Shown in pieces: positions 15,206 through 60,907 of a stretch of DNA of 64,000 nucleotides. Source of the stretch: a virus; the IMG/VR virus record IMGVR_UViG_3300011335_000900, positions 1 through 64,000 of that record; one strand, given 5' to 3'. How positions within the stretch are numbered: position 1 is the first letter of the stretch; each line of letters begins with the position of its first letter. Both the position numbers and the translations under genes were made by a program. Below the pieces are notes generated by a model. It ran no database searches, was not told the DNA's origin, and saw only the letters and a list, made by a program, of their open reading frames with translations.

Positions 15206-15766
15206 ATGAAAGATACTTTTGACTTAACAAAATTTTTAAAAGAAAATAAATCTCTTGAAAATTTAAATCCAACCTTTAAATCACTCAACGAAGAAGAATC
15301 TCGTGAAGAAAGGGCTGACGTAGACAAATATGAATACGAAAAAGGAAAAAAAGCTGGAATAAAAGCAAAAATCAGAGAATATATCTTATCTGAATTAGAA
15401 TTAGACATTGATGACAGTGACAAAACAGACGCAGAATTAAATGCTGATTACGATCCAGTTTATGAAGGTGGAGAACTTGAAGAAGCTAAAAAAGACAAAG
15501 AAGCAGATGTTGAAGATGTAAATATCGAAGATACAACCATCGAAGATGTACCTGCAGAAGATGCACCTATTGAAGATGTACCTGCTACAGGTGGTGGTTT
15601 AGAAGATATAGCTGCAGATATGAAAGGTACTGAAGCTGATCTAATGGATCACTTAATGAAATCATTTCAAATTGCTAAAGGAATGCAAAATGAAAAACTA
15701 GAAACACAAATAGGAAACACACTAAAATTTTTCGTTAGCGAATATATTGGTGGAGGAGAACAGTAA
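15206..15766 (+). CDS. Acidic putative head-internal protein
   Basis: Several L-x-E sites (FLKE, SLNE, ILSE, LEE); acidic EDVPA repeats; late motif at 15192. Confidence 0.5.
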   Translation: MKDTFDLTKFLKENKSLENLNPTFKSLNEEESREERADVDKYEYEKGKKAGIKAKIREYILSELELDIDDSDKTDAELNADYDPVYEGGELEEAKKDKEADVEDVNIEDTTIEDVPAEDAPIEDVPATGGGLEDIAADMKGTEADLMDHLMKSFQIAKGMQNEKLETQIGNTLKFFVSEYIGGGEQ

Positions 15767-26358: not shown

Positions 26359-28257
26359 ATGGCAGACACAGGCTTATTTAAAAGATTACAACGTTTATTT
26401 TCAACTGATGTTATTATCCGAAATGAAGGAGATAATAAACTAAAAGTATTTGACATCAACAAAATACAAGTTTCAGGAGAATATGAAACAAATTCCCTAG
26501 TAGACCGATTTTCTAGAATATTTACAAACTCAAACACTTCAATTTATGGATACCAAAGTAGTTTCAACTATCAAACAATACGCCCTACGCTTTATTCTGA
26601 ATATGACTCAATGGATACAGATGCTATTGTCGCCTCTGCTTTAGATATAATTGCTGATGAAAGTACATTACGTAATGATATGGGAGAAGTACTTCAAATA
26701 CGTAGCTCCGATGAAGATGTACAAAAAATACTATATAATTTATTTTACGATGTATTAAATATAGAATTTAATCTATGGCCATGGGTTAGAAATATGTTGA
26801 AATATGGAGATTTCTTTTTAAAATTAGAAATAGCAGAAAAATTTGGTGTATATAATGTTATCCCATACAATGCATTTCATATTGAAAGACAAGATGGATA
26901 CGATAAAGAACATCCTGCATCTATAAGATTTAAATTTGACCCAGATGGAATTACAGCTGCCTCAAGTTATGGATTCTACAATGTTCCAAATTCTGGAAAT
27001 CAAGCAAATGCTATTTATTTTGATAATTATGAAATGGCTCACTTTCGTTTATTAACGGATACTAACTTTTTACCTTATGGTAGATCTTATTTAGAACCAG
27101 GACGTAAATTATTTAAACAATACACTATGATGGAGGATGCAATGCTAATCCATAGAATTGTTAGAGCACCAGAAAAACGTATATTTTATATCAATGTAGG
27201 AAATATTGCACCTGCTGAGGTAGAAAACTTTATGCAGAAAACGATTTCAAAGATGAAACGTACTCCATACATTGATCAAGAAACCGGCGATTACAATTTA
27301 AAATACAACATGCAAAACTTGCTTGAAGATTTTTATATTCCTGTTAGAGGAACAGATCAAGCAACTAAAATAGATAATTTAGGTGGTTTACAATATGATG
27401 GAATCCAAGATGTTGAGTATTTAAGAGACAAATTATTTGCTGCTTTAAAAGTACCTAAAGCATTTATGGGCTACGAAAAAGATTTAACAGGTAAAGCTAC
27501 ATTAGCGGCTGAAGATATTCGTTTTGCTCGTACAGTTGAACGCATACAACGCATTATGGTGTCTGAATTAACTAAAATCGCATTAGTACATTTATACGCG
27601 CAGGGATACACAGATGAAAGTTTAACTAATTTTACTCTTTCATTAACAACCCCTTCAATCATTTACGATCAAGAAAGAGTTGCTTTACTAAAAGAAAAAG
27701 TAGATCTAGCTGCTCAAATGATCGAGCAAAAAATTATGTCTACAGATTGGATATATGAAAATATTTTCCATTTAAGTGAAGACCAATACGATGAAAATAG
27801 AGACTTGCTTATTCAGGATGCTAAACGTAAGTTTAGAATAACTCAAATTGAAAACGAAGGTAATGATCCATTAGAAACAGGTAAATCTTATGGAACACCA
27901 CATGATTTAGCTTCCCTATATGGTAGAAGTAGATATGAAGATGGTGAGGTTCCTGTTGGATATGACGAAAAAGAAACTTTAGGCAGACCAGCAGAAAAAG
28001 TAACTGATAGAAATACTCAAGATAATGCTTTTGGCAAAGACAGAATTGGAGCATCAGGTATGAAAAAAGATAATGATGAATCAGATTCTATTAAACCTAA
28101 ATATCAAGGTGGGTCTCCATTGGCGCTAGAAACTAAAAATACTAGAAATAAAAATTCTAAAATGTTTAATGATATTAAAAATCAAAAGAAACAAATGATT
28201 TTTGAAGCAGATATTAAAGGAAATTCATTATTAGATGAATCACAGATACGAGAGTAA
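26359..28257 (+). CDS. Portal protein (T4 gp20-like)
   Basis: YGRSYLE; MEDAMLIHRIVRAPEKRIFYINVGN; EDFYIPVRG; LFAALKVPK; EDIRFAR. Confidence 0.93.
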   Translation: MADTGLFKRLQRLFSTDVIIRNEGDNKLKVFDINKIQVSGEYETNSLVDRFSRIFTNSNTSIYGYQSSFNYQTIRPTLYSEYDSMDTDAIVASALDIIADESTLRNDMGEVLQIRSSDEDVQKILYNLFYDVLNIEFNLWPWVRNMLKYGDFFLKLEIAEKFGVYNVIPYNAFHIERQDGYDKEHPASIRFKFDPDGITAASSYGFYNVPNSGNQANAIYFDNYEMAHFRLLTDTNFLPYGRSYLEPGRKLFKQYTMMEDAMLIHRIVRAPEKRIFYINVGNIAPAEVENFMQKTISKMKRTPYIDQETGDYNLKYNMQNLLEDFYIPVRGTDQATKIDNLGGLQYDGIQDVEYLRDKLFAALKVPKAFMGYEKDLTGKATLAAEDIRFARTVERIQRIMVSELTKIALVHLYAQGYTDESLTNFTLSLTTPSIIYDQERVALLKEKVDLAAQMIEQKIMSTDWIYENIFHLSEDQYDENRDLLIQDAKRKFRITQIENEGNDPLETGKSYGTPHDLASLYGRSRYEDGEVPVGYDEKETLGRPAEKVTDRNTQDNAFGKDRIGASGMKKDNDESDSIKPKYQGGSPLALETKNTRNKNSKMFNDIKNQKKQMIFEADIKGNSLLDESQIRE

Positions 28258-31244: not shown

Positions 31245-31877
31245 ATGAACAAAGAACTCTTAATAGAAACCAGACAATTTACCCCTAAACCAGTTCGTTT
31301 AATTGAAGGAATGGGCAATGGCGGTAATGTATTTGTTGAAGGTATTTTAGCTACTGTTGAAGTAAAAAATGGTAACGGAAGATACTATAAAAAAGAGTTA
31401 TGGGATCGTGAAATTGAAAATTTTCAAAATAAAATTAAACAAAAATCTACAGAAACTGTAGGTGAACTAGACCACCCCGATTCTCAAGTAATTAATTTAA
31501 AAAATGCATCTCACGCCGTTCGTGATTTATGGTGGGTTGGAGATGAAATTCATGGCAAAGTAGAAATATTTTGTGACATGGGAGATAAAGGCACTACTTC
31601 AGGCCGTATTGCGGGAGCATTAGTTAAAAATGGTTTAGTTATTGGTATTTCCTCTCGTGGGATGGGTTCATTGAAACAAATGGGTGAAGTAATGGAGGTA
31701 CAAGATGATTTTGAACTATTAACATGGGATTTAGTTTCAAACCCATCAAACCCAGATTCATGGATGAAAAATGGTGCATTAAATGAATCACGTACTACAT
31801 TTTTAGACCCATATTCAAAAACCAACTCAATTATTACCGAAATCCTTTGCGCAAAAGGAACTTGTCCTTTATTTTAA
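31245..31877 (+). CDS. Prohead core protease (T4 gp21-like)
   Basis: KNGNGRYY; GELDHP (His); GISSRGMGSL (Ser); WDLVSNPS (Asp). Confidence 0.92.
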   Translation: MNKELLIETRQFTPKPVRLIEGMGNGGNVFVEGILATVEVKNGNGRYYKKELWDREIENFQNKIKQKSTETVGELDHPDSQVINLKNASHAVRDLWWVGDEIHGKVEIFCDMGDKGTTSGRIAGALVKNGLVIGISSRGMGSLKQMGEVMEVQDDFELLTWDLVSNPSNPDSWMKNGALNESRTTFLDPYSKTNSIITEILCAKGTCPLF

Positions 31878-32016: not shown

Positions 32017-33351
32017 ATGGCAACAAACAGAGCAATGCTTAAAGAAGCAATCGCTGACGCTAAAGCTGTAAAAGAAACAGCAATAGCAAACGCAAAAGCA
32101 GCCCTAGAAGAAGCCTTCACACCTCAACTTAAGTCAATGTTATCAATGAAACTTCAAGAAATGGAATCCGATGAGGACGATCTTGAAGAAACATACATAT
32201 CTGAAAAAAAAGATGAAGATCTTGAAGAAATGTATGGTAAAAAAGATGATAAAAACATGATGGAAGTTGATTTAGAAGAGCTTTTGGCTGAATTAGAAGA
32301 GGAAGAAATGGAAGAAGGTCTTTACGAAGCTGAAGAAATGGAAGAAGAAACTGAAGAAACAGAAGAAACTGAAGAAGAAACAGAAGACGAAGCTGAACCA
32401 ATCAACCTTGAAGACATGACAGATGAAGATCTAAAATCAATGATTGAAGATGTAATCGCGGACATGATTAAATCAGGTGAACTTGAAGCTGGTTCCGAAA
32501 GTGAAGAAGATGAAATGGAAATGGAAATGGAACCTGAAGAAGTAGAAGTAGAAGACGAAGATGTAGATTTATCTGAATTGTTAAGAGAAATCGAAGGTTT
32601 AGAAGAAGAATCAATGTTAGAAGGAAAAATTCCATCTAAAGAAGAATTAGAAGCTAAATTAGCTACTTTAACACCAGAAGAAGAAAAAATGTTATTTAAA
32701 GCTATTCAAGATGTAAATGCTTCAACATTATCAGAAGAAGAAAACGGAGCAGAAAAAGAAATTGAAACTGTGAAACAAAAAGTAGCAAGAATTGCACAAA
32801 CCGTTGGCTTAGGAGCTTCAACACTTGGAACAATTGCATTTATAGCTGGTGTCATTAATGATTCAGGAGCTGCTAAAGCTGCAAAAATGGCACAAACCAT
32901 ACCTATGGATGCCCTAGCGGCAGCTGGAGGTGTAGGAATTCTTATGGGTTTAGCTACGGCAATGTATGGATATCTTAATAAAAAGATGGAAGAATCAATG
33001 TCTGAAGAACTTGAAGAAGCTTATTCTACTATTGAAACTTTAAAGTCTGAATTAAACGAGATCAATTTGTTAAACGCTAAATTGCTTTATACAAACAAAA
33101 TCTTCAAGTCTAAAACTTTAAACGAAAATCAAAAAGTAAAAGTGTTAAGTTCTTTTGACAAAGCTAAAAACGTAGGCGAAGTAAAAATGGTATTTGAAAC
33201 ATTAAATGAGGGAATCAAAGTTTCAAAAAATACTATTAACGAAAACCTAGGTAGAGCTTCAAAAGGAACAATGGCACCTAACGTTAAAAAACCAATCGTA
33301 GAGTCAAACGAGGCATTTTTAAGAATGCAAAAATTGGCTGGAATTATTTAA
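32017..33351 (+). CDS. Prohead scaffold/core protein with an internal hydrophobic insert
   Basis: Between protease and capsid; very acidic; MLKEAIADAKAVKETAIANAK start; ends RMQKLAGII. Confidence 0.8.
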   Translation: MATNRAMLKEAIADAKAVKETAIANAKAALEEAFTPQLKSMLSMKLQEMESDEDDLEETYISEKKDEDLEEMYGKKDDKNMMEVDLEELLAELEEEEMEEGLYEAEEMEEETEETEETEEETEDEAEPINLEDMTDEDLKSMIEDVIADMIKSGELEAGSESEEDEMEMEMEPEEVEVEDEDVDLSELLREIEGLEEESMLEGKIPSKEELEAKLATLTPEEEKMLFKAIQDVNASTLSEEENGAEKEIETVKQKVARIAQTVGLGASTLGTIAFIAGVINDSGAAKAAKMAQTIPMDALAAAGGVGILMGLATAMYGYLNKKMEESMSEELEEAYSTIETLKSELNEINLLNAKLLYTNKIFKSKTLNENQKVKVLSSFDKAKNVGEVKMVFETLNEGIKVSKNTINENLGRASKGTMAPNVKKPIVESNEAFLRMQKLAGII

Positions 33352-33380: not shown

Positions 33381-35129
33381 ATGTCAACAATTAATTCATT
33401 ACTCGAAAGTTCTGCTTCCGGATGGAAAAACATGCAGAACGATGCCGCTAGAATGGCATCAAAATGGGGTAAAACAGGTCTCTTAGAGGGACTTGGTAGC
33501 GAAGTTAACAAAAATAACATGGCTATGATCCTCGAAAACCAAGCAAAACAGTTAGTAACTGAGCAATCATCAACAGGTGGAGCAGGTACTCAAGGCGGTT
33601 TTACAGCTGGTCAAGGTGAACAATGGGCTGGTGTAGCGCTTCCATTGGTACGTAAAGTATTTGGTTCTTTATCAACTAAAGAATTCATGTCTGTACAACC
33701 AATGAATCTACCTTCAGGTCTTGTATTCTTTTTAGATTTTCAATATGGAGATGCAGGAGGAGCAAATGGTAAAGCAGCACCAACAGGTCCTTTTGGCCCT
33801 ACTGGAAATACTTATGCTGCCGCTTCATCTATGTACGGTGAAACTAACCCAGCAAATGGAGGAGATCCTACAAACGGTTTATATGGTGCAGGTCGATTTG
33901 CATATTCAATAAACCAATTCTCTGCATCTTTGCAAGTATCTCGTTCAGCTGCTCTTTGGAGTGACGTTGATTATGATACTACATTATCTGCATCAATTGC
34001 TGCTGGTAATGTTTATTCAAAAGTAACTTATTTTGTAGGTACTGGTACAAACGCTACACGCCCTGACTTTAAAGGTGTTCGTGCATTCGTTCCTGGTTCT
34101 GGATCAACAACAGCTCCAATAACTGAGACTTATACTCGTTTATTACCTCAGTACACTGCTACTAATGGTACTTCAACTATTACCTTTATTTTCTCTGGTT
34201 CCGCAACAGGAGCATATGATGCTGCTACAGGTATTCCAGCTACAGGATCAGTAGTAACTGCAAATACTTTATTCTACAATGTACAACCAACAGATAACAC
34301 TCGTGGTGACTTTGAAGATAAATCAGGAGCAGGATATGCAAATGCTGAATCTACAGCAGCAGATAACTTAGCTATTCCAGAAATCAATATCCAAATGAAA
34401 TCTGAAGCTATTGTTGCTAAAACTCGTAAGTTAAAAGCACAATGGACACCAGAATTTGCACAGGATTTGAACGCATACCAATCATTGGATGCTGAAGCTG
34501 AATTAACATCAATTATGTCTGAATATATTGCTCTAGAAATAGATCTTGAAAACTTAGATATGTTGATCCAAGATGCTTCTGCTGCAGATGAGTACTGGTC
34601 AGCTAAAAATAATAATAGCCTAAATGCTGCAAAAACAGCTTGGGATACTACAGCTAACTTTTACAACACACAAGGTGCATGGTTCCAAACTTTAGGTACT
34701 AAGTTTCAAAAAGTATCTAATAAGATTCACCAAAAGACTCTTAGAGGTGGTGCTAATTTCTTAGTATGTTCTCCAGCAGTAGCAACTATCATTGAATCAA
34801 TCCCAGGATTTGCTTCATCTTCAGATGGTGATGTTACTAAAGGTTCATATGCTTTTGGTATCCAAAAAGCAGGTCAATTTAACAGCCGTTACACAGTTTA
34901 CAAAAACCCTTACATGACAGAAAACGTTATTTTGATGGGTTATAGAGGAGCTCAATTCCTTGAAACTGGTGCTGTATTTGCTCCATATGTACCGTTAATC
35001 ATGACACCTCTTGTGTACGATCCAGTAACATTTACTCCACGTAAAGGTTTATTGACTCGTTACGCTAAGAAAATGATCCGTCCGGAATTCTTCGGTCGTG
35101 TATTTGTTAATGATTTAGCTGCAGTTTAA
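33381..35129 (+). CDS. Major capsid protein (T4 gp23-like)
   Basis: LPLVRKVF; SVQPMNLPSGLVF; AKTRKLKAQWTPEFAQDL; GAVFAPYVPL; TPRKGLLTRY. Confidence 0.95.
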   Translation: MSTINSLLESSASGWKNMQNDAARMASKWGKTGLLEGLGSEVNKNNMAMILENQAKQLVTEQSSTGGAGTQGGFTAGQGEQWAGVALPLVRKVFGSLSTKEFMSVQPMNLPSGLVFFLDFQYGDAGGANGKAAPTGPFGPTGNTYAAASSMYGETNPANGGDPTNGLYGAGRFAYSINQFSASLQVSRSAALWSDVDYDTTLSASIAAGNVYSKVTYFVGTGTNATRPDFKGVRAFVPGSGSTTAPITETYTRLLPQYTATNGTSTITFIFSGSATGAYDAATGIPATGSVVTANTLFYNVQPTDNTRGDFEDKSGAGYANAESTAADNLAIPEINIQMKSEAIVAKTRKLKAQWTPEFAQDLNAYQSLDAEAELTSIMSEYIALEIDLENLDMLIQDASAADEYWSAKNNNSLNAAKTAWDTTANFYNTQGAWFQTLGTKFQKVSNKIHQKTLRGGANFLVCSPAVATIIESIPGFASSSDGDVTKGSYAFGIQKAGQFNSRYTVYKNPYMTENVILMGYRGAQFLETGAVFAPYVPLIMTPLVYDPVTFTPRKGLLTRYAKKMIRPEFFGRVFVNDLAAV

Positions 35130-41040: not shown

Positions 41041-42801
41041 ATGGCGGAAACAATCGTATCACCTGGTGTATTAGCTATAGAAAATGATCAATCATTTATA
41101 ACACAACAACCTGTACAAGCTGGTGCTGCTATTATAGGCCCAACACCAAAAGGTAAAGTTGGTATTCCTGTTTTATGTACTACTTATAGTGATTATTTAA
41201 ATAAATTTGGCTCTACATTTTTAAGTGGTAGTCAAACTTACACATATTTTACCTCTATTGCAGCATATAACTATTTTAATAGTGGAGGAAATACACTATT
41301 AGTAACACGTGTAGTAAGTGGTAGCACATCTTTAGATTGGACTCCTGCTACATCATCATTTATATCATCATCTGCTCATTCTGCAGGTTCTCCATATAAT
41401 ACATCTCCTTTTATACTAGAAACTCTATCTGAGGGAATAATAATGAACAGCACGGGTCCTACAGGCTCATTTGGAACATTATTAAGTGGATCAGCTGATA
41501 ATTTTAGATGGCAAATAGCATCCCCAAATATAAATGATGGAACTTTTTCTTTACTTATTAGACAAGGAAATGACTCAGATATTAATCAATCCGTTGTAGA
41601 AAGTTGGGGTCCATTATCATTAGATCCTTTTGCTGCAAATTATATTGAAAAAGTAATAGGAAATCAAGTTGAAACTATTCTTTCAGATAATAATGAATAC
41701 TATATTCAATTAACTGGAAGTTATCAAAATAATTCCTCTATCATTAGAGTTAAACAAGTTAACCAAACTACTCCAAATTATTTAGATAATAATGGAGTTT
41801 TCCAACCTCAATTTACTGGATCACTTCCAATAACATCAAGTGGAACTTTTGGATCAGCTAAAGGAACTAACATTCCATCGGTAGCAGGTAATTATTATGA
41901 AACTATAACATCAAATAATATCCAAGGTCTTACAGCAAATGCATATACTGAATCTATTTCTTTATTAGCAAATAAAGATGCATATAAATACAATGTATTA
42001 GTTGCCCCAGGATTAATAAGTTCTCACGCTTTTGCTGGTAATTCTAGTTTTGCTGCTATTACACAAATTCAAACCACAGTACAAGAAAGAGGAGATGCTA
42101 TAGCTGTTATAGATTTAGTACCATATAATGCTACAATAGGTACTGTAACTTCAACAGTATCATCATACAATACACCATATATGGCTACTTATTGGCCTTG
42201 GTTAAAAACATTAGATCCTAATACAGCTAATCAAGTATGGGTTCCCGCTTCAACAATGATTCCTAGTGTATATGCTTTCAATGATAGTGTTGCTGCACCT
42301 TGGTTTGCACCCGCTGGTATAAACAGAGGTATTTTACCAACTGTTATTCAAGCTGAACGTATTTTAACTCAAGGAAATAGAGATACTTTATACCAATCAA
42401 ATGTAAATGCTATTGCAACATTTCCAGGAGCTGGAATTGTAGTATTTGGACAAAAAACATTACAAAAGAAAAAAAGTGCATTAGACCGTGTGAATGTAAG
42501 ACGTTTATTAATTGAGTTAAAAAATTATATATCTCAAGTAGCAGATACATTTGTATTTGAACAAAATGATGCAAATACACGAAGTGAATTATTATCAATA
42601 ATTAATCCTTATTTATCATCTATTCAACAACAACAAGGTTTAACTAGTTTTAAAGTAATTATGGATGAATCAAATAATCCACCCTCAGTTGTAGATCAAA
42701 ACCAATTAGTTGGACAAATTTATTTACAACCTACTAGAACAATTGAATTTATCCTTTTAGATTTTAATATTTTACCTACAGGTGCAGTATTCCCTGCTTA
42801 G
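41041..42801 (+). CDS. Tail sheath protein 1
   Basis: SPGV; AAIIGPT; YWPW; PWFAPAGINRG; VVFGQKTLQ; DRVNVRRLL; QPTRTIEFI. Confidence 0.93.
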   Translation: MAETIVSPGVLAIENDQSFITQQPVQAGAAIIGPTPKGKVGIPVLCTTYSDYLNKFGSTFLSGSQTYTYFTSIAAYNYFNSGGNTLLVTRVVSGSTSLDWTPATSSFISSSAHSAGSPYNTSPFILETLSEGIIMNSTGPTGSFGTLLSGSADNFRWQIASPNINDGTFSLLIRQGNDSDINQSVVESWGPLSLDPFAANYIEKVIGNQVETILSDNNEYYIQLTGSYQNNSSIIRVKQVNQTTPNYLDNNGVFQPQFTGSLPITSSGTFGSAKGTNIPSVAGNYYETITSNNIQGLTANAYTESISLLANKDAYKYNVLVAPGLISSHAFAGNSSFAAITQIQTTVQERGDAIAVIDLVPYNATIGTVTSTVSSYNTPYMATYWPWLKTLDPNTANQVWVPASTMIPSVYAFNDSVAAPWFAPAGINRGILPTVIQAERILTQGNRDTLYQSNVNAIATFPGAGIVVFGQKTLQKKKSALDRVNVRRLLIELKNYISQVADTFVFEQNDANTRSELLSIINPYLSSIQQQQGLTSFKVIMDESNNPPSVVDQNQLVGQIYLQPTRTIEFILLDFNILPTGAVFPA

Positions 42802-42847: not shown

Positions 42848-44569
42848 ATGGCAAACTTTACAGTATCACCTGGTGTAACCACTAATGAATTAGATCAAAC
42901 ATTTTTAACAGGACAACCTGTGCAAGCTGGAGCCGCTATTATAGGCCCAACAGTTAAAGGTCCTTTTGAAGTACCAACATTAGTAACTTCATACTCACAA
43001 TATACATCATTATTTGGAGATTCATTCGTAAGTGGAGGAATAAATTATTCATATTTAACCTCAATTGCTGCATATAATTATTTTAATTATGGAGGATCTT
43101 CATTATTAGTAGCTAGAGTAGCAAGTGGATCATTTACCTCAGCAACATCTACTTTAATACCAACTGGTTCTGGAACTCCTAATGGAACTTTAGGTTTATC
43201 CCCATTTGTTCTAGAAACAATTTCACAAGGAATTATTATGAATAGTTCCGGATCAGAAATTAATGGAGCTTTAGTTAGTGGTTCAAAAGATAATATACGA
43301 TTTGAAACTACTAATTTAAATACAGGATCAGGTACATTTAATGTATTAATTAGACAAGGAAACGATACAACAAATAATAAAAATATACTTGAATCATTTA
43401 ATGGAGTTAATTTAGATCCAAATTCAGATCGTTTTATTTCTTTAGTAATTGGTGATCAAAAATTAGCATATAATTCAACAAATGTTCAAATGGAATTATC
43501 TGGAAGCTATCCAAATAATTCAAGATATGTAAGAGTTAAATCTGTTAACTATTCTACCCCAACTTATTTAGATTCAAACGGAAATATTTTAAACAATTTA
43601 TATACAGGATCTCTTCCATTAAATGGAAGTGGTTCATTTAGTGGTGCTACTGGTACAGTTGCCGCAAACGTAGGAGCATCAATGTATGAAAATATATCTA
43701 CTATAACACAAGGATTAACATCCGGTTCTTATGATAATATGGTTGCTTTATTTGGTAATCAAGAAGCATATCAATTTAATTTACTATTTACCCCAGGTCT
43801 ATTAAACGACAAACATGCCTCAGTAGTATCTACAATTATTACAAATACTCAAAATAGAGGAGATAATTTATATGTACTAGATTTAATTGATTACAATGGT
43901 ACAGTTTCATCTATTATAACGCAAGCACAAACCAGAAACACATCATATGCTGCCTCATATTGGCCTTGGGTTCGTATCGTTGATCCTGCAACAGGAAAAC
44001 AAATATGGGTACCGGCTTCAACTGTAATTCCAGGAGTATATGCTTTTAATGATAAAGTATCTGCACCTTGGTTTGCACCCGCAGGAATAAATCGTGGTGG
44101 ATTATCTACAGTATTACAAGCTCAATTTAAATTAACTCAAGCTAATAAAGATTCATTATATAGTAATAACATTAACCCATTAGCTACATTACCTAAAAAT
44201 GGTGTTGTAGTATTTGGACAAAAAACATTACAAAAACAATCATCTGCTCTTGATCGTGTAAACGTAAGACGTTTGATGATTGAAATGAAGAATTATATTC
44301 GTCAAATTGCAGATACAGTAGTATTTGAACAAAATACAATAGCAACAAGAAATTCATTTGTAGCTAGAGTAACTCCATTTTTAGAAGGCATTCAACAAAA
44401 ACAAGGATTATATGCTTATAAAATAATAATGGATGATTCAAATAATGGACCAGCAGTAATTGACCAAAATCAATTAGTAGGTCAAATTTATATTCAACCA
44501 ACTAGAACAGCAGAATTTATTTCATTGGATTTTATCTTATTACCAACAGGAGCTGAATTTCCTGGATAA
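42848..44569 (+). CDS. Tail sheath protein 2
   Basis: Same sheath motifs as 41041..42801; full-length paralogue with its own late motif at 42826. Confidence 0.93.
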   Translation: MANFTVSPGVTTNELDQTFLTGQPVQAGAAIIGPTVKGPFEVPTLVTSYSQYTSLFGDSFVSGGINYSYLTSIAAYNYFNYGGSSLLVARVASGSFTSATSTLIPTGSGTPNGTLGLSPFVLETISQGIIMNSSGSEINGALVSGSKDNIRFETTNLNTGSGTFNVLIRQGNDTTNNKNILESFNGVNLDPNSDRFISLVIGDQKLAYNSTNVQMELSGSYPNNSRYVRVKSVNYSTPTYLDSNGNILNNLYTGSLPLNGSGSFSGATGTVAANVGASMYENISTITQGLTSGSYDNMVALFGNQEAYQFNLLFTPGLLNDKHASVVSTIITNTQNRGDNLYVLDLIDYNGTVSSIITQAQTRNTSYAASYWPWVRIVDPATGKQIWVPASTVIPGVYAFNDKVSAPWFAPAGINRGGLSTVLQAQFKLTQANKDSLYSNNINPLATLPKNGVVVFGQKTLQKQSSALDRVNVRRLMIEMKNYIRQIADTVVFEQNTIATRNSFVARVTPFLEGIQQKQGLYAYKIIMDDSNNGPAVIDQNQLVGQIYIQPTRTAEFISLDFILLPTGAEFPG

Positions 44570-57381: not shown

Positions 57382-57431
57382 GTATTAGGAGTATAATAGA
57401 CTTTTTTGTACATTTTAATATGTATAATAAA

Positions 57432-58134: not shown

Positions 58135-58605
58135 ATGTTATATTCCGAACCTAACCTTAATATGTATAGTATATATCCACCATTGGAATATGATTTTGAT
58201 AATATATTAAACTATATGTCTAGCAATAGGTTGTTTTGCACTTTCTCCCCATTAGATGATTTAGATTCATTGATAAATGGACTTACATCACGTTATACAA
58301 TAATGTATAACAAAATGTTTGTGCTACATATTAAAAGCAACAATGAGTATGTTGTAACATACAATGTAGATCAAGGAAACATAAACGACATTCCAGACAA
58401 TACAATTTTAGTACATAGAAAAAAAGATTCCAACACACTCTATACAATTAATGCTTTAAATGAATTAATTAAAAAATTAAATGGTGGAGCAGTGGATACA
58501 AATTACCCAGTAAATTGGCAACATTACAGAAATTGTATATTGTTGACCCAACACAATGAAATTAAGCAACTTAATACAAAGATTTTTAAAATTATTGAAT
58601 TATGA
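58135..58605 (+). CDS. Hypothetical protein (true start possibly 58216)
   Basis: NRLFCTF; TILVHRKKDSNTLYTINALN; an ATATGTATA motif at 58160 suggests a later start. Confidence 0.55.
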   Translation: MLYSEPNLNMYSIYPPLEYDFDNILNYMSSNRLFCTFSPLDDLDSLINGLTSRYTIMYNKMFVLHIKSNNEYVVTYNVDQGNINDIPDNTILVHRKKDSNTLYTINALNELIKKLNGGAVDTNYPVNWQHYRNCILLTQHNEIKQLNTKIFKIIEL

Positions 58606-59153
58606 AGTTGTTAGATATATTAAGAGAATCAATTTCCTCTAACATATATAAAATTACATTTAATGATGATGAATTTGATATTGAAGGATCTAATTTAAAT
58701 GAAATATTAAAAATACCTAATTTAACATATGATATGGGTGGGGGGGAAAATGTTTATTATCCTTCTTCAAATGTTGTTGCTGTTGATTATATCGATGTTA
58801 ATGATTATGCTAGGTGGACTTTAGATGAATGGGGCGATGAATTAAGTGTAAAATATTACATATTACAAGATTTAAATATTCCATTTTCTTTCCCAAAAGC
58901 AAACGAAATCATTTTATCTAAAGTAGTAATTTATATAAAGAATATAGAAGCTTTAGCCCAATCAGTAAATAATTCATTAAAACCTAATGGAAAAATTGAA
59001 TTTTTTGCAGAACATGGGAAAAATACTTTAAGTAAAAAAGATATAAATTTTCTTCAAATATTAAATGAAAAATATTCTTTTCAATTTGAAAACAATCAAA
59101 CAATAGATCAATTAAAAAAAGATCCAACCCAAAGAATATACTTAAAAAAATAA
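58602..59153 (+). CDS. Divergent class I SAM-methyltransferase-like protein with N-terminal tag
   Basis: MKLLDILRE tag; YDMGGGE (motif I-like); VVAVD; SLKPNGKIEF. Confidence 0.45.
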   Translation: MKLLDILRESISSNIYKITFNDDEFDIEGSNLNEILKIPNLTYDMGGGENVYYPSSNVVAVDYIDVNDYARWTLDEWGDELSVKYYILQDLNIPFSFPKANEIILSKVVIYIKNIEALAQSVNNSLKPNGKIEFFAEHGKNTLSKKDINFLQILNEKYSFQFENNQTIDQLKKDPTQRIYLKK

Positions 59154-59154
59154 A

Positions 59155-60030
59155 ATGACACAAGAACAACTCCGTATGCAAATGTTGGCTGGTATCATTA
59201 CTAAAGATCAATATAAAGCTAAATTAAATGAAGATTCTTCTGATAAATTAACTCTATATCTTTATACCCAAACCCCCATAGGCTGGGAAGGAGTAACTCT
59301 AATAAACTCAGTATTATGTGAAGTATCATATTCAAGTGGTAAGTTTGATTATGTATCTCTTAGAAAATATAAACCTACCAAAATAGATAAATTTGCAATA
59401 GATCACAGGAATTTTTCCGAAAGTGAATATGAAATTGTTACATCTTATTTAGATAAATTAAATATCCAATATAATCAATATCTTTATATAAAAGATGCAA
59501 GTAGTTATTCAAATATAGAAACTATTTTTACAAAAAATCCCCCAAACTTTGTTCCAAAAGATATAAAATTAAACACTGAAATATTAGATTTTTTTATAAA
59601 AAGAGATAATCCTGAACAAATTGAAGGAGATATTGTTTATGGAGATGTTTATGATTTTGGAGGTGCTGAAGGACCAATAGATAGTTCTCAAGCGGTTGTA
59701 GTAGATCTTTATTTAACCCCTAAACAAAAGAAAAATCCTTCTAAGTTTATAGAAGCTGATTTGAGTAAATATGTTGAACTTCCCCCAAAAAATGGAATTA
59801 ATATTTTTTCTGCAGTAGCTCAAATTAATTCTCCTAATAATCTATCAAAAACTATTAAACATGCCTTAAAACCTGGAGGGTTATTAGTTATTAAAGATCA
59901 TTTAGGAGCAGTTCAAAATCTTTTAAAATACTTAAAAGAATTTAAACTTTTAGAATTTGAATATGTTGATATAGAAGATGAAGAAAATATTACTTTATCT
60001 GATCAAATTTTTGTAGTATTAAAAAAATAG
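59155..60030 (+). CDS. Divergent class I SAM-methyltransferase-like protein with scaffold-like N-terminal tag
   Basis: MTQEQLRMQMLAGII...KLNE; YDFGGAEG; VVVDL; IEADL; ALKPGGLLVIKDH. Confidence 0.5.
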   Translation: MTQEQLRMQMLAGIITKDQYKAKLNEDSSDKLTLYLYTQTPIGWEGVTLINSVLCEVSYSSGKFDYVSLRKYKPTKIDKFAIDHRNFSESEYEIVTSYLDKLNIQYNQYLYIKDASSYSNIETIFTKNPPNFVPKDIKLNTEILDFFIKRDNPEQIEGDIVYGDVYDFGGAEGPIDSSQAVVVDLYLTPKQKKNPSKFIEADLSKYVELPPKNGINIFSAVAQINSPNNLSKTIKHALKPGGLLVIKDHLGAVQNLLKYLKEFKLLEFEYVDIEDEENITLSDQIFVVLKK

Positions 60031-60088: not shown

Positions 60089-60907
60089 ATGAATCTAGAT
60101 GCAATCAAGAAGAAACTTGAATCCATGCAGTCCAAACCAACAGGGGGAGGTGCAAACAATCAAACCAAGCGATTTAAACCGCAAATTGGTAAACAAACGG
60201 TACGTGTTGTTCCGTTCAAATACAACAAGGAATTTCCATTCACGGAAATGAAATTTTACTATGGAATTGGTAGTAAAAAAGTAATTGCTTCTCCATTAAA
60301 TTGGGGTGAAAAAGATCCAATTGCTGAATTTGCAAAACAACTTCGTGGTACAAATGACAAAGAAAATTGGAGATTAGCTAAGAAATTAGACCCTAAAAAC
60401 CGTATTTTTGCTCCTGTAATTGTACGTGGTGAAGAGTCGGAAGGAGTTCAAATGTGGGAATTTGGTAAAGAAATTTACGAAGCATTTTTACAAATGGCCG
60501 CAGATGAAGAAGTAGGTGATTTTACAGACATTATGATGGGACGTGACATTAAGTTAGTTACAGTTGGACCTGATTCTACAGGAACAGTTTATAACAAAAC
60601 TACAATTACACCTTCTATGAAAACATCACCATTAACTGAAGATGAAAAATCTTTAGAATTATGGTTAGAGGATCAAGTTAATCCAAAAGAATCTTACAAA
60701 ATGCTTCCATTTGATGAAATCAAAGCAGCACTTGCAGAATGGTTAAATCCTGAAGAGGAAGAAGAATTTACTCCTGCTGATGGAAAATTAACAGTAGAGG
60801 AAAAACCAAAATCAAATTACAGTTTAACTACAAAACCAGAATCTAAGAAATCTAAAGCAGATAATTTTGATGCTTTATTTGAAGAAGATGATGATTTGCC
60901 ATTTTAA
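60089..60907 (+). CDS. Single-stranded DNA-binding protein (T4 gp32-like)
   Basis: FKP..GKQTVRVVP; DPIAEF; VIVRGEE.EGV..WEFGK; GRDI; acidic tail ending DDDLPF. Confidence 0.8.
   Translation: MNLDAIKKKLESMQSKPTGGGANNQTKRFKPQIGKQTVRVVPFKYNKEFPFTEMKFYYGIGSKKVIASPLNWGEKDPIAEFAKQLRGTNDKENWRLAKKLDPKNRIFAPVIVRGEESEGVQMWEFGKEIYEAFLQMAADEEVGDFTDIMMGRDIKLVTVGPDSTGTVYNKTTITPSMKTSPLTEDEKSLELWLEDQVNPKESYKMLPFDEIKAALAEWLNPEEEEEFTPADGKLTVEEKPKSNYSLTTKPESKKSKADNFDALFEEDDDLPF

Follow-up and report, generated by a model that had tools for sequence, protein, structure and literature searches.

A conserved scaffold C-terminal peptide recurs at the ends of unrelated proteins in T4-related phages and may serve as a removable capsid-targeting leader

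We analysed the first 64 kb of IMG/VR virus record IMGVR_UViG_3300011335_000900, a single record of 129,105 bp with a G+C content of 30%; this stretch of 64,000 nucleotides is called the window below. Judged from its sequence, the source virus is a T4-related myovirus. Its gp22-like head scaffold protein ends in ...FLRMQKLAGII (longer stretch ...PIVESNEAFLRMQKLAGII, followed by the stop codon), and nearly the same peptide stands close to the N-terminus of the product of open reading frame (ORF) 59155-60030, which is encoded 26 kb away and starts MTQEQLRMQMLAGII (in longer form MTQEQLRMQMLAGIITKDQYKAKLNEDSS). We find that this peptide is a conserved scaffold tail and that copies of it are carried as leaders by many unrelated proteins. 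The features concerned are:

32017-33351, forward strand: gp22-like head scaffold gene (444 residues), between the S77 protease gene and the gene for the gp23-like major capsid protein (MCP)
33295-33303, forward strand: I-V-E, scaffold residues 427-429, predicted prohead-protease site six residues ahead of the tail motif
33322-33348, forward strand: scaffold C-terminal tail RMQKLAGII, from the six-frame regular-expression scan and the shuffle test
59155-60030, forward strand: candidate tagged cargo gene (291 residues), comprising the leader, a variable beta domain and a methyltransferase-like domain
59155-59232, forward strand: leader MTQEQLRMQMLAGIITKDQYKAKLNE, residues 1-26, the same leader as on unrelated proteins
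59173-59199, forward strand: core motif RMQMLAGII, the scaffold-tail copy, from the same scan and shuffle test
59224-59232, forward strand: L-N-E, residues 24-26, the first [IL]-x-E site past the motif in ORF 59155, conserved in its family

The original prediction, made from the letters of the window, had claimed a 9/10 identity between the two peptides, and the translations bear this out (LRMQKLAGII in the scaffold, LRMQMLAGII in ORF 59155). A six-frame regular-expression scan finds the motif at just these two places in the window. The corresponding degenerate DNA pattern has two matches in the window and any match in 0 of 100 dinucleotide-preserving shuffles, and the amino-acid frequencies of the genome predict 1.6e-4 matches over 40,517 ORF residues. 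The match between tail and leader is beyond chance. The KLNE said to follow the motif is present, but it lies eight residues on (residues 23-26) and not immediately behind it; directly past the motif ORF 59155 reads ITK where ITE is usual. In the family of ORF 59155, 15 of 16 full-length homologs carry the leader, and 15 of 15 intact homologs read ITE or AE.

The scaffold ORF itself gave no match in Pfam or PHROG. Despite this, the scaffold label already proposed for it is upheld by its position between the protease and MCP genes and by homology, since scaffold homologs occupy the same position in Flavobacterium phage immuto and Microcystis phage Mel-JY01. The other head features of the window are:

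26359-28257: gp20-type portal
31245-31877, forward strand: prohead protease, Peptidase_S77 (T4 gp21 family; Pfam PF03420, E 1.2e-26)
33381-35129, forward strand: gp23-like MCP (Pfam Gp23, E 4.7e-71)
33552-33563, forward strand: MCP propeptide segment L-V-T-E61, which the alignment sets on the maturation site of T4 gp23

The protease shares 30% identity with T4 gp21 (E 8e-26), and its N-terminal ELLIET is aligned on QLLIET of T4, with the LIE self-cleavage site kept. In the BLASTP alignment of the N-terminal segment of the MCP (E 4e-7), ...LVTE61/QSS is aligned on ...FLTE65/AEI of T4 gp23, for which a T4 review gives a propeptide of 65 residues. It is plausible that the protease has the same cleavage specificity as T4 gp21. 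By MCP, the closest named relatives are immuto (57.5%), Mel-JY01 (47%), LR756508, an uncultured phage of 484 kb (45%), and RM378, a Rhodothermus phage (35%).

Conservation of the tail was assessed in a sample free of motif bias, namely 80 IMG/VR loci fetched by MCP similarity alone (55-93% identity), of which seven without upstream DNA were dropped. The pattern R-[MFW]-[QKR]-x-[LI]-A-[GF] forms the end of the ORF upstream of the MCP gene in 73 of the 73 relatives counted: 40 have the strict motif, 26 have R-F-[QK] and 7 have L-A-F. The L-A-F subgroup (loci L167, L164, L159, L179, L189, L180 and L198) reads ...RM[RQK][EQ][LI]AF..., with Phe for Gly and a longer tail. Scaffold ends of named relatives are ...SRWQKLAGIIK in immuto and ...ERMKKLAGIVK in Mel-JY01, with the variants ...ERIKRLAGL in RM378 and ...SRMQKLADIS in LR756508; the motif is absent from the scaffold ends of T4 gp22 (...VYAKVASRF) and cyanophage S-RIM12 gp22 (...ARWSK). 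From these comparisons, R-M-Q-x-L-A-G-I-I appears as a conserved C-terminal tail of gp22-like scaffolds in a large clade of T4-related phages.

An alignment was also made of the window's scaffold with 54 of 57 listed scaffold ORFs (L025, L053 and L127 were excluded for doubtful starts), in which the invariance of the tail is circular, being a consequence of the search pattern. Conservation through the clade extends to the start of the scaffold, (D)L[LF]K[EQ]AIA[DE]AK (window 32017-32070). An AlphaFold2 (AF2) model of the scaffold has a confident helical domain at residues 305-399 (predicted local distance difference test, pLDDT, 93-98); residues 406-428 are a disordered linker, and the chain ends in a helix at 432-443, with a pLDDT of about 75 for the tail in this single-chain model. 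As modelled, the tail is a short helix tethered by a flexible linker of roughly 30 residues.

Across the whole genome there are six copies of the motif, all of them terminal: two at C-termini, one of these being the scaffold tail, and four at N-termini as leaders. The six-frame scan gave three copies beyond the two of the window, and a wider regular expression gave the sixth; all-terminal placement of the first five has a probability of 4.5e-5 under uniform placement. Besides the scaffold and ORF 59155, the bearers are:

97461-97856: tagged ORF with N-terminal leader, starts MTQEQLRMQMLAGIITESQYAAKLNE
101792-102094: tagged ORF with N-terminal leader, starts MKKDLIRMQELAGLKEAKL
106235-106747: tagged ORF with N-terminal leader of the LSG variant, starts MEKDTLRMQFLSGVITESEYKA
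102097-103056: ORF with C-terminal copy, ends ...FDLYRMKKLAGL

Two of the genome's leaders, which begin MTQEQL, are identical over 17 residues and differ at five synonymous DNA positions; they are therefore not the product of a recent DNA duplication. Among the bearers, the 319-residue protein of 102097-103056, which has no family match, combines an MKLTDILRE start with an RMKKLAGL end, so that it bears both tag classes in the order of the scaffold's own ends. The product of ORF 106235-106747 has a conserved Gly-rich hydrophobic stretch (...SLNESMIGGIVGIGAINQIP...) in common with the tagged proteins P0041 and P0118 of other phages. A Cpn10/Cpn60 (GroES/GroEL) pair at 99543-101487 lies directly upstream of the tagged genes 101792 and 102097.

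The survey of related genomes that the original prediction had proposed, covering positions and attached domains, returned mostly terminal copies, with leaders on unrelated bodies that have no Pfam or PHROG match. A pattern scan of IMG/VR gave at least 126 matches from at least 120 stretches, and the counts of leaders and C-terminal copies derived from it are counts among the matches listed. Among those 126, the stop is at most 3 residues away in 83 and the first Met at most 25 residues away in 38; the other 5 comprise two that look N-terminal from a nearer Met, one with a four-residue tail, one ambiguous case and one chance match in a LAGLIDADG-type nuclease. C-terminal copies number 89 in all, or 87 once the two of the genome studied here are set aside, and in 81 of the 87 the copy closes an ORF whose next gene downstream is gp23-like; a further five are on other proteins, and the last is a chance frame of nine residues. 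N-terminal leaders number 49, of which 46 come from these loci and three from the genome studied here, and they stand before unrelated bodies that form 43 BLASTP clusters. None of the 49 tagged proteins (0/49) has a Pfam or PHROG match, and the isoelectric point is below 6 in 37 of them. In these pattern-derived sets and in the leader alignment (A3) the invariance of the core residues is circular, and the free observations are position, flanks and bodies. Distinct DNA versions of the core number 42 and 53 and use all synonymous codons, which argues that selection acts on the peptide.

A leader profile searched against 1.84 billion representative proteins retrieved 2,578 representatives at E<=1e-3, 112 of them at E<=1e-10. 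The match falls inside the first 22 residues in 141 of the best 150, and the remaining nine include large proteins tagged at each end and proteins with two copies. On these profile matches, the leader appears to be lineage-wide and to stand on thousands of unrelated proteins, mostly small, acidic and fast-changing. It is usually N-terminal, sometimes C-terminal or at both ends. Metagenomic proteins tagged at both ends or twice are P0046, P0051, P0035, P0034, P0036, P0115 and P0116; those with double-ended tags are large (874-1005 residues), and some of these proteins have a second internal copy between x-x-E sites, polyprotein-like, as if built of two cargo modules.

Immuto has two tagged ORFs, located at about 25.1 kb and 111.7 kb of its record. 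No leader matching the patterns used, which miss variants like LSG, was found in G003, G002, RM378, Mel-JY01 or LR756508; G003, a genome of 166 kb that is 100% complete by CheckV, has the scaffold copy only. The idea that leaders occur in every tail-bearing genome was rejected on these five. Because they show the scaffold copy only, the tail does not need leaders, and such genomes suggest that the tail is older and more widespread, with leaders having arisen in part of the clade. We also considered whether an M/F/W change in the second residue of a scaffold tail is followed by the leaders of the same genome. The two genomes allowing this test, immuto and G008, gave no covariation and led us to reject the idea: the scaffold reads RWQ in immuto and RFK in G008, and the leaders stay RMQ in both, so that covariation lends no support.

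Candidate protease sites lie next to the peptide in most copies. An [ILV]-x-E ends no more than 3 residues past LAG[IL] in 48 of the 49 leaders, mostly as LAGIITE, ORF 59155 being the sole exception; among 53 distinct C-terminal copies, 48 have an [ILVM]-x-E 2-9 residues ahead of the motif, 29 of them at six residues. Whichever end carries the peptide, the site always separates it from the remainder of the protein. Cleavage would be expected at IVE in the scaffold and at LNE in ORF 59155. Additionally, the bodies of tagged proteins (the 47 of 49 longer than 40 residues, 45 of them distinct) contain 49 [IL]-x-E sites as against 74.5 +/- 7.7 in shuffles, only 2 of 2000 shuffles being as low, whereas the ORFs of the genome taken together are enriched (562 versus 458.6 expected) and the scaffold has 4.5 sites per 100 residues. 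The depletion fits proteins that survive confinement with the prohead protease.

Behind its leader, ORF 59155 has the following domain, close to two further features upstream:

57418-57427, forward strand: nearest promoter-like word upstream of ORF 59155 (ATATGTATAA), ahead of the first gene of the run, a predicted HNH gene
58602-59153, forward strand: upstream neighbour with leader MKLLDILRE, compared by hhalign with alignment A2
59572-60027, forward strand: class I S-adenosylmethionine (SAM) methyltransferase-like domain, about residues 140-291, from Foldseek

The term methyltransferase-like, used from the outset for this protein, holds at the level of the fold and finds no counterpart at the level of Pfam. 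The rows that Foldseek listed down to rank 50 are all class I SAM methyltransferases, NNMT and TehB included, with NodS (3ofj) at the top (E 6e-6); the template-modelling score is just 0.3 by query and at most 0.48 by target. No Pfam or PHROG match was obtained for the body, the best hit of a PDB profile search had an E of 0.6, and tblastn gave no match in named phages. In the AF2 model (pLDDT 74.5, with residues 171-205 below 50), leader helices 3-11 and 17-24 lie apart from the body, the first breaking at AGII, and are followed by a beta domain and an alpha/beta domain. On this model, the body is folded like a class I SAM methyltransferase. Y166-D-F-G-G170, D184 (in VVVDL), EADL and PGG are invariant in 17 family sequences; YDFGG and D184 match the Gly-rich motif I and the acidic residue at the end of strand 2, and may contact SAM. 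One candidate identity, DpdM, was rejected because DpdM, a dPreQ1 methylase, is described as a DUF3109 protein with a different fold; the idea arose as relatives are reported to carry 7-deazaguanine DNA. The upstream ORF 58602-59153 matches alignment A2 over 82 columns, from the Gly-rich motif to PGG (hhalign probability 66.8%, E 5.3e-5), and is probably a paralog of the methyltransferase-like domain with another leader.

The run that holds ORF 59155 lies beside genes for a gp32-like single-stranded DNA-binding protein (SSB), a RecA-like ORF and a flap-nuclease-like ORF, the latter two labelled by reading of the ORF list only. The SSB (window 60089-60907) has an acidic terminus, ...EEDDDLPF, which presumably resembles the C-terminal tip of bacterial SSB and would be another terminal docking peptide. 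The window also encodes PhoH, two tail sheath proteins and a tube protein; the sheath paralogs lie in tandem at 41041-42801 and 42848-44569, with a promoter-like word before each.

That word, ATAT[TG]TAT[AT]A, occurs 29 times on the forward (coding) strand and twice on the reverse strand of the whole genome, and 27 copies lie 2-37 nt ahead of a start, the distance being mostly 12-37 nt (28269, 41012, 42826, 44586 and 57418 are examples in the window). Genes with the word ahead of them include those for both sheath proteins and the tube, one head gene, and predicted HNH and GIY-YIG nuclease genes; it also stands 22-23 nt ahead of the tagged genes 97461, 101792 and 106235. From the genes that it precedes, the word is probably a late promoter. 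A first candidate promoter word, ATATGTATA, is absent ahead of this genome's tagged genes. Calls of ORFs starting MYNK... have a false start that the word overlaps. ORF 59155 has no word of its own, being the last gene of a tight run opened by the predicted HNH gene, and would be read from the word at 57418. We take the HNH label from an earlier note and from the Cys-rich start of the protein; Pfam gave no match.

Taken as a whole, we think it probable that the peptide copied from the scaffold tail acts as a removable leader for capsid targeting, a propeptide in the style of T4 that would bind, be packaged and be cut off. During prohead assembly, the leader would occupy the docking site of the scaffold tail, most likely the inner face or the N-terminal arm of the gp23-like capsid protein, and the cargo would thus be enclosed. 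The S77 protease would then cut at [IL]-x-E. In an N-terminal leader the cut would come immediately behind the motif, and in the scaffold or a C-terminal tag immediately ahead of it. The freed cargo would remain in the head, from which it could exit with the DNA at infection. As the leader reproduces the scaffold tail exactly, a receptor is suggested, which by analogy may be the MCP.

The original prediction had read the copy as a packaging address, and this fits every indirect test, namely terminal placement, unrelated bodies, the gp21-type site, the promoter-like word and the depletion of sites in the bodies. The accompanying idea of a peptide captured by a single enzyme proved too narrow for a leader that is lineage-wide and present on 15 of the 16 family homologs, while the word 'captured' agrees with a tail older than the leaders. 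Several points weigh against the proposed targeting role. The receptor is a guess by analogy, and the terminal-position counts cover the matches listed. In ORF 59155 itself the usual ITE site has been lost to ITK, and the gene sits among replication genes without its own promoter word. Several relatives have the tail without a leader of the patterns used, leaders do not covary with their own scaffold tail, and a few internal copies exist, for example in P0118, P0159 and a G001 ORF.

The same address could also have another receptor. The tail may be a self-association or core-binding helix, and the cargo would then co-assemble with the scaffold core by way of the scaffold, the protease or the portal. 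T4 reviews, in the passages on leaders, ascribe to them an affinity for the core by an unknown mechanism. Leaders that ignore the M/F/W change of their own tail are easier to accommodate in a tolerant helix bundle, and the protein of 102097-103056, with its MKLTDILRE start and RMKKLAGL end, resembles a small scaffold. Against this reading, the scaffold tails of P22, phi29 and herpesviruses bind coat protein. Published work on 80alpha has the C-terminal scaffold tail binding coat protein, and overall we consider a core receptor unlikely, though a live rival. Still less likely, in our estimate, is a late-phase signal unconnected with packaging, for instance a propeptide that docks on or inhibits the protease, or a tag that marks clients of the phage's own GroES/GroEL pair, with the tagged proteins acting in the cell. 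Such a signal would suit tagged genes that lie among replication and chaperonin genes, with Cpn10/Cpn60 before 101792 and 102097 and ORF 59155 beside the SSB gene. However, the scaffold itself has the motif in all 73 relatives, the cleavage site stands between peptide and cargo at N- and C-termini alike, the [IL]-x-E depletion fits bodies shut in with the protease, and in T4 ipII and ipIII (65-66 kb) likewise lie away from the head genes (101-108 kb).

The last reading is that the leader has no function and is a promoter-plus-leader cassette spread by recombination, or a remnant of ancestry. In relatives the word stands just upstream of many leaders, in-frame as NMYNKN, and the 17-residue identity of the two MTQEQL leaders could be read in the same way. 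Yet these two copies differ synonymously, all synonymous codons are used across copies, C-terminal copies occur outside any promoter context, the bodies are unrelated and the adjacent [ILV]-x-E is kept in 48 of 49; we regard this reading as highly improbable.

A broader proposal than the removable leader in this clade is that T4-type cargo leaders in general are copies of the scaffold's own ends, here called scaffold mimicry. We hold this tentatively, as a possibility that is more doubtful than the targeting role itself. The T4 IPII/IPIII leader MKTYQEFIAEA resembles the gp22 N-terminus MLKEQLIAEA (MLKEQLIAEAQK), and the 'L..L.KE' leaders of the genome studied here resemble its scaffold N-terminus RAMLKEAIAD (MATNRAMLKEAIAD), both matches being short and weak. 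As a separate observation, a third shared leader, MDNFDLK[KQ]YL[VA]EN[RK]L, starts ORFs 98676-99122 and 103056-103715, and a similar one opens window ORF 15206-15766 (MKDTFDLTKFLKENKSLENL). The promoter-like word is found ahead of the first and third of ORFs 15206, 98676 and 103056, and the MCP of LR756508 starts MNNFDLSQF.

The kind of system is already known from the capsid-targeting sequences (CTS) of T4, from DarB of P1 and from mimicry by CpmB. The novelty lies in the peptide, which in a T4-type phage is identical with the scaffold tail, in the use of either protein end, and in the scale. In the herpesvirus protease-scaffold pair and in encapsulin cargo peptides, one short terminal peptide, in herpesviruses a C-terminal tail that binds the MCP, is common to scaffold and passenger and brings both into the shell. 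The herpesvirus has one passenger, from a nested gene, encapsulins have neither scaffold nor protease step, and both belong to other lineages with other sequences. P1 DarB is alike in being an enzyme-bearing protein loaded into a myovirus head by 30 or fewer of its first residues, a signal that carries a reporter into capsids. Its authors, however, could identify neither a consensus among the P1 Dar proteins nor a connection with a scaffold tail, and P1 apparently lacks a separate scaffold.

The CTS of T4 (IPII/IPIII; the IPI and Alt propeptides) are similar in being short N-terminal leaders on unrelated, fast-changing proteins with an (L/I)-x-E end, in acting beside an S77 protease, a gp22-like scaffold and a gp23-like MCP, and in belonging to genes scattered off the head module; a T4 review describes their removal by gp21. 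MKTYQEFIAE and ...RMQxLAGIITE have no sequence likeness, so that they are not the same peptide family. Moreover, the leader here copies the C-terminal tail of the scaffold, whereas T4 gp22 does not have the motif and a 2023 review calls the mechanism 'mysterious' where it treats it; the tag here also occurs in C-terminal and double-ended form.

In descriptions of 80alpha, the scaffold tail is a helix plus a RIIK hook that binds the N-arm of the coat protein, and CpmB of SaPI1 copies it. In 80alpha the last roughly 16 scaffold residues form the amphipathic helix plus hook, and the likeness lies in a tail that is copied by a second protein, there so as to use the same site; the tail here ends ...LAGII(K) and has, in the AF2 model, a terminal helix on a disordered linker. 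However, 80alpha is not T4-like, the sequences are unrelated, and CpmB is described as a satellite's rival scaffold that resizes the capsid, not as cargo, whereas the copies here are the phage's own, exist in thousands and come with a protease site. A search of part of the literature, with supplements excluded, found no paper with the motif strings, LAGII giving unrelated words only. There was no immuto virion proteome among the literature matches listed, whose supplementary files could hold proteomes.

A leader that is the scaffold's own tail names a concrete and testable docking mechanism for the choice of head proteins in T4-type phages. The leader also marks a very large set of unannotated, fast-changing proteins (2,578 representative clusters). 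The tagged proteins, the methyltransferase-like enzyme among them, are candidates for delivery into the host with the DNA, and the tag, being short, natural and equipped with its own release site, may offer a handle for capsid loading, as the T4 and P1 tags already do. If scaffold mimicry is true, a long-unexplained rule of T4 core loading would be solved and a 20-residue natural capsid-loading tag would be in hand. Additionally, the set of packaged, probably injected proteins of thousands of uncultured phages could become readable from sequence alone.

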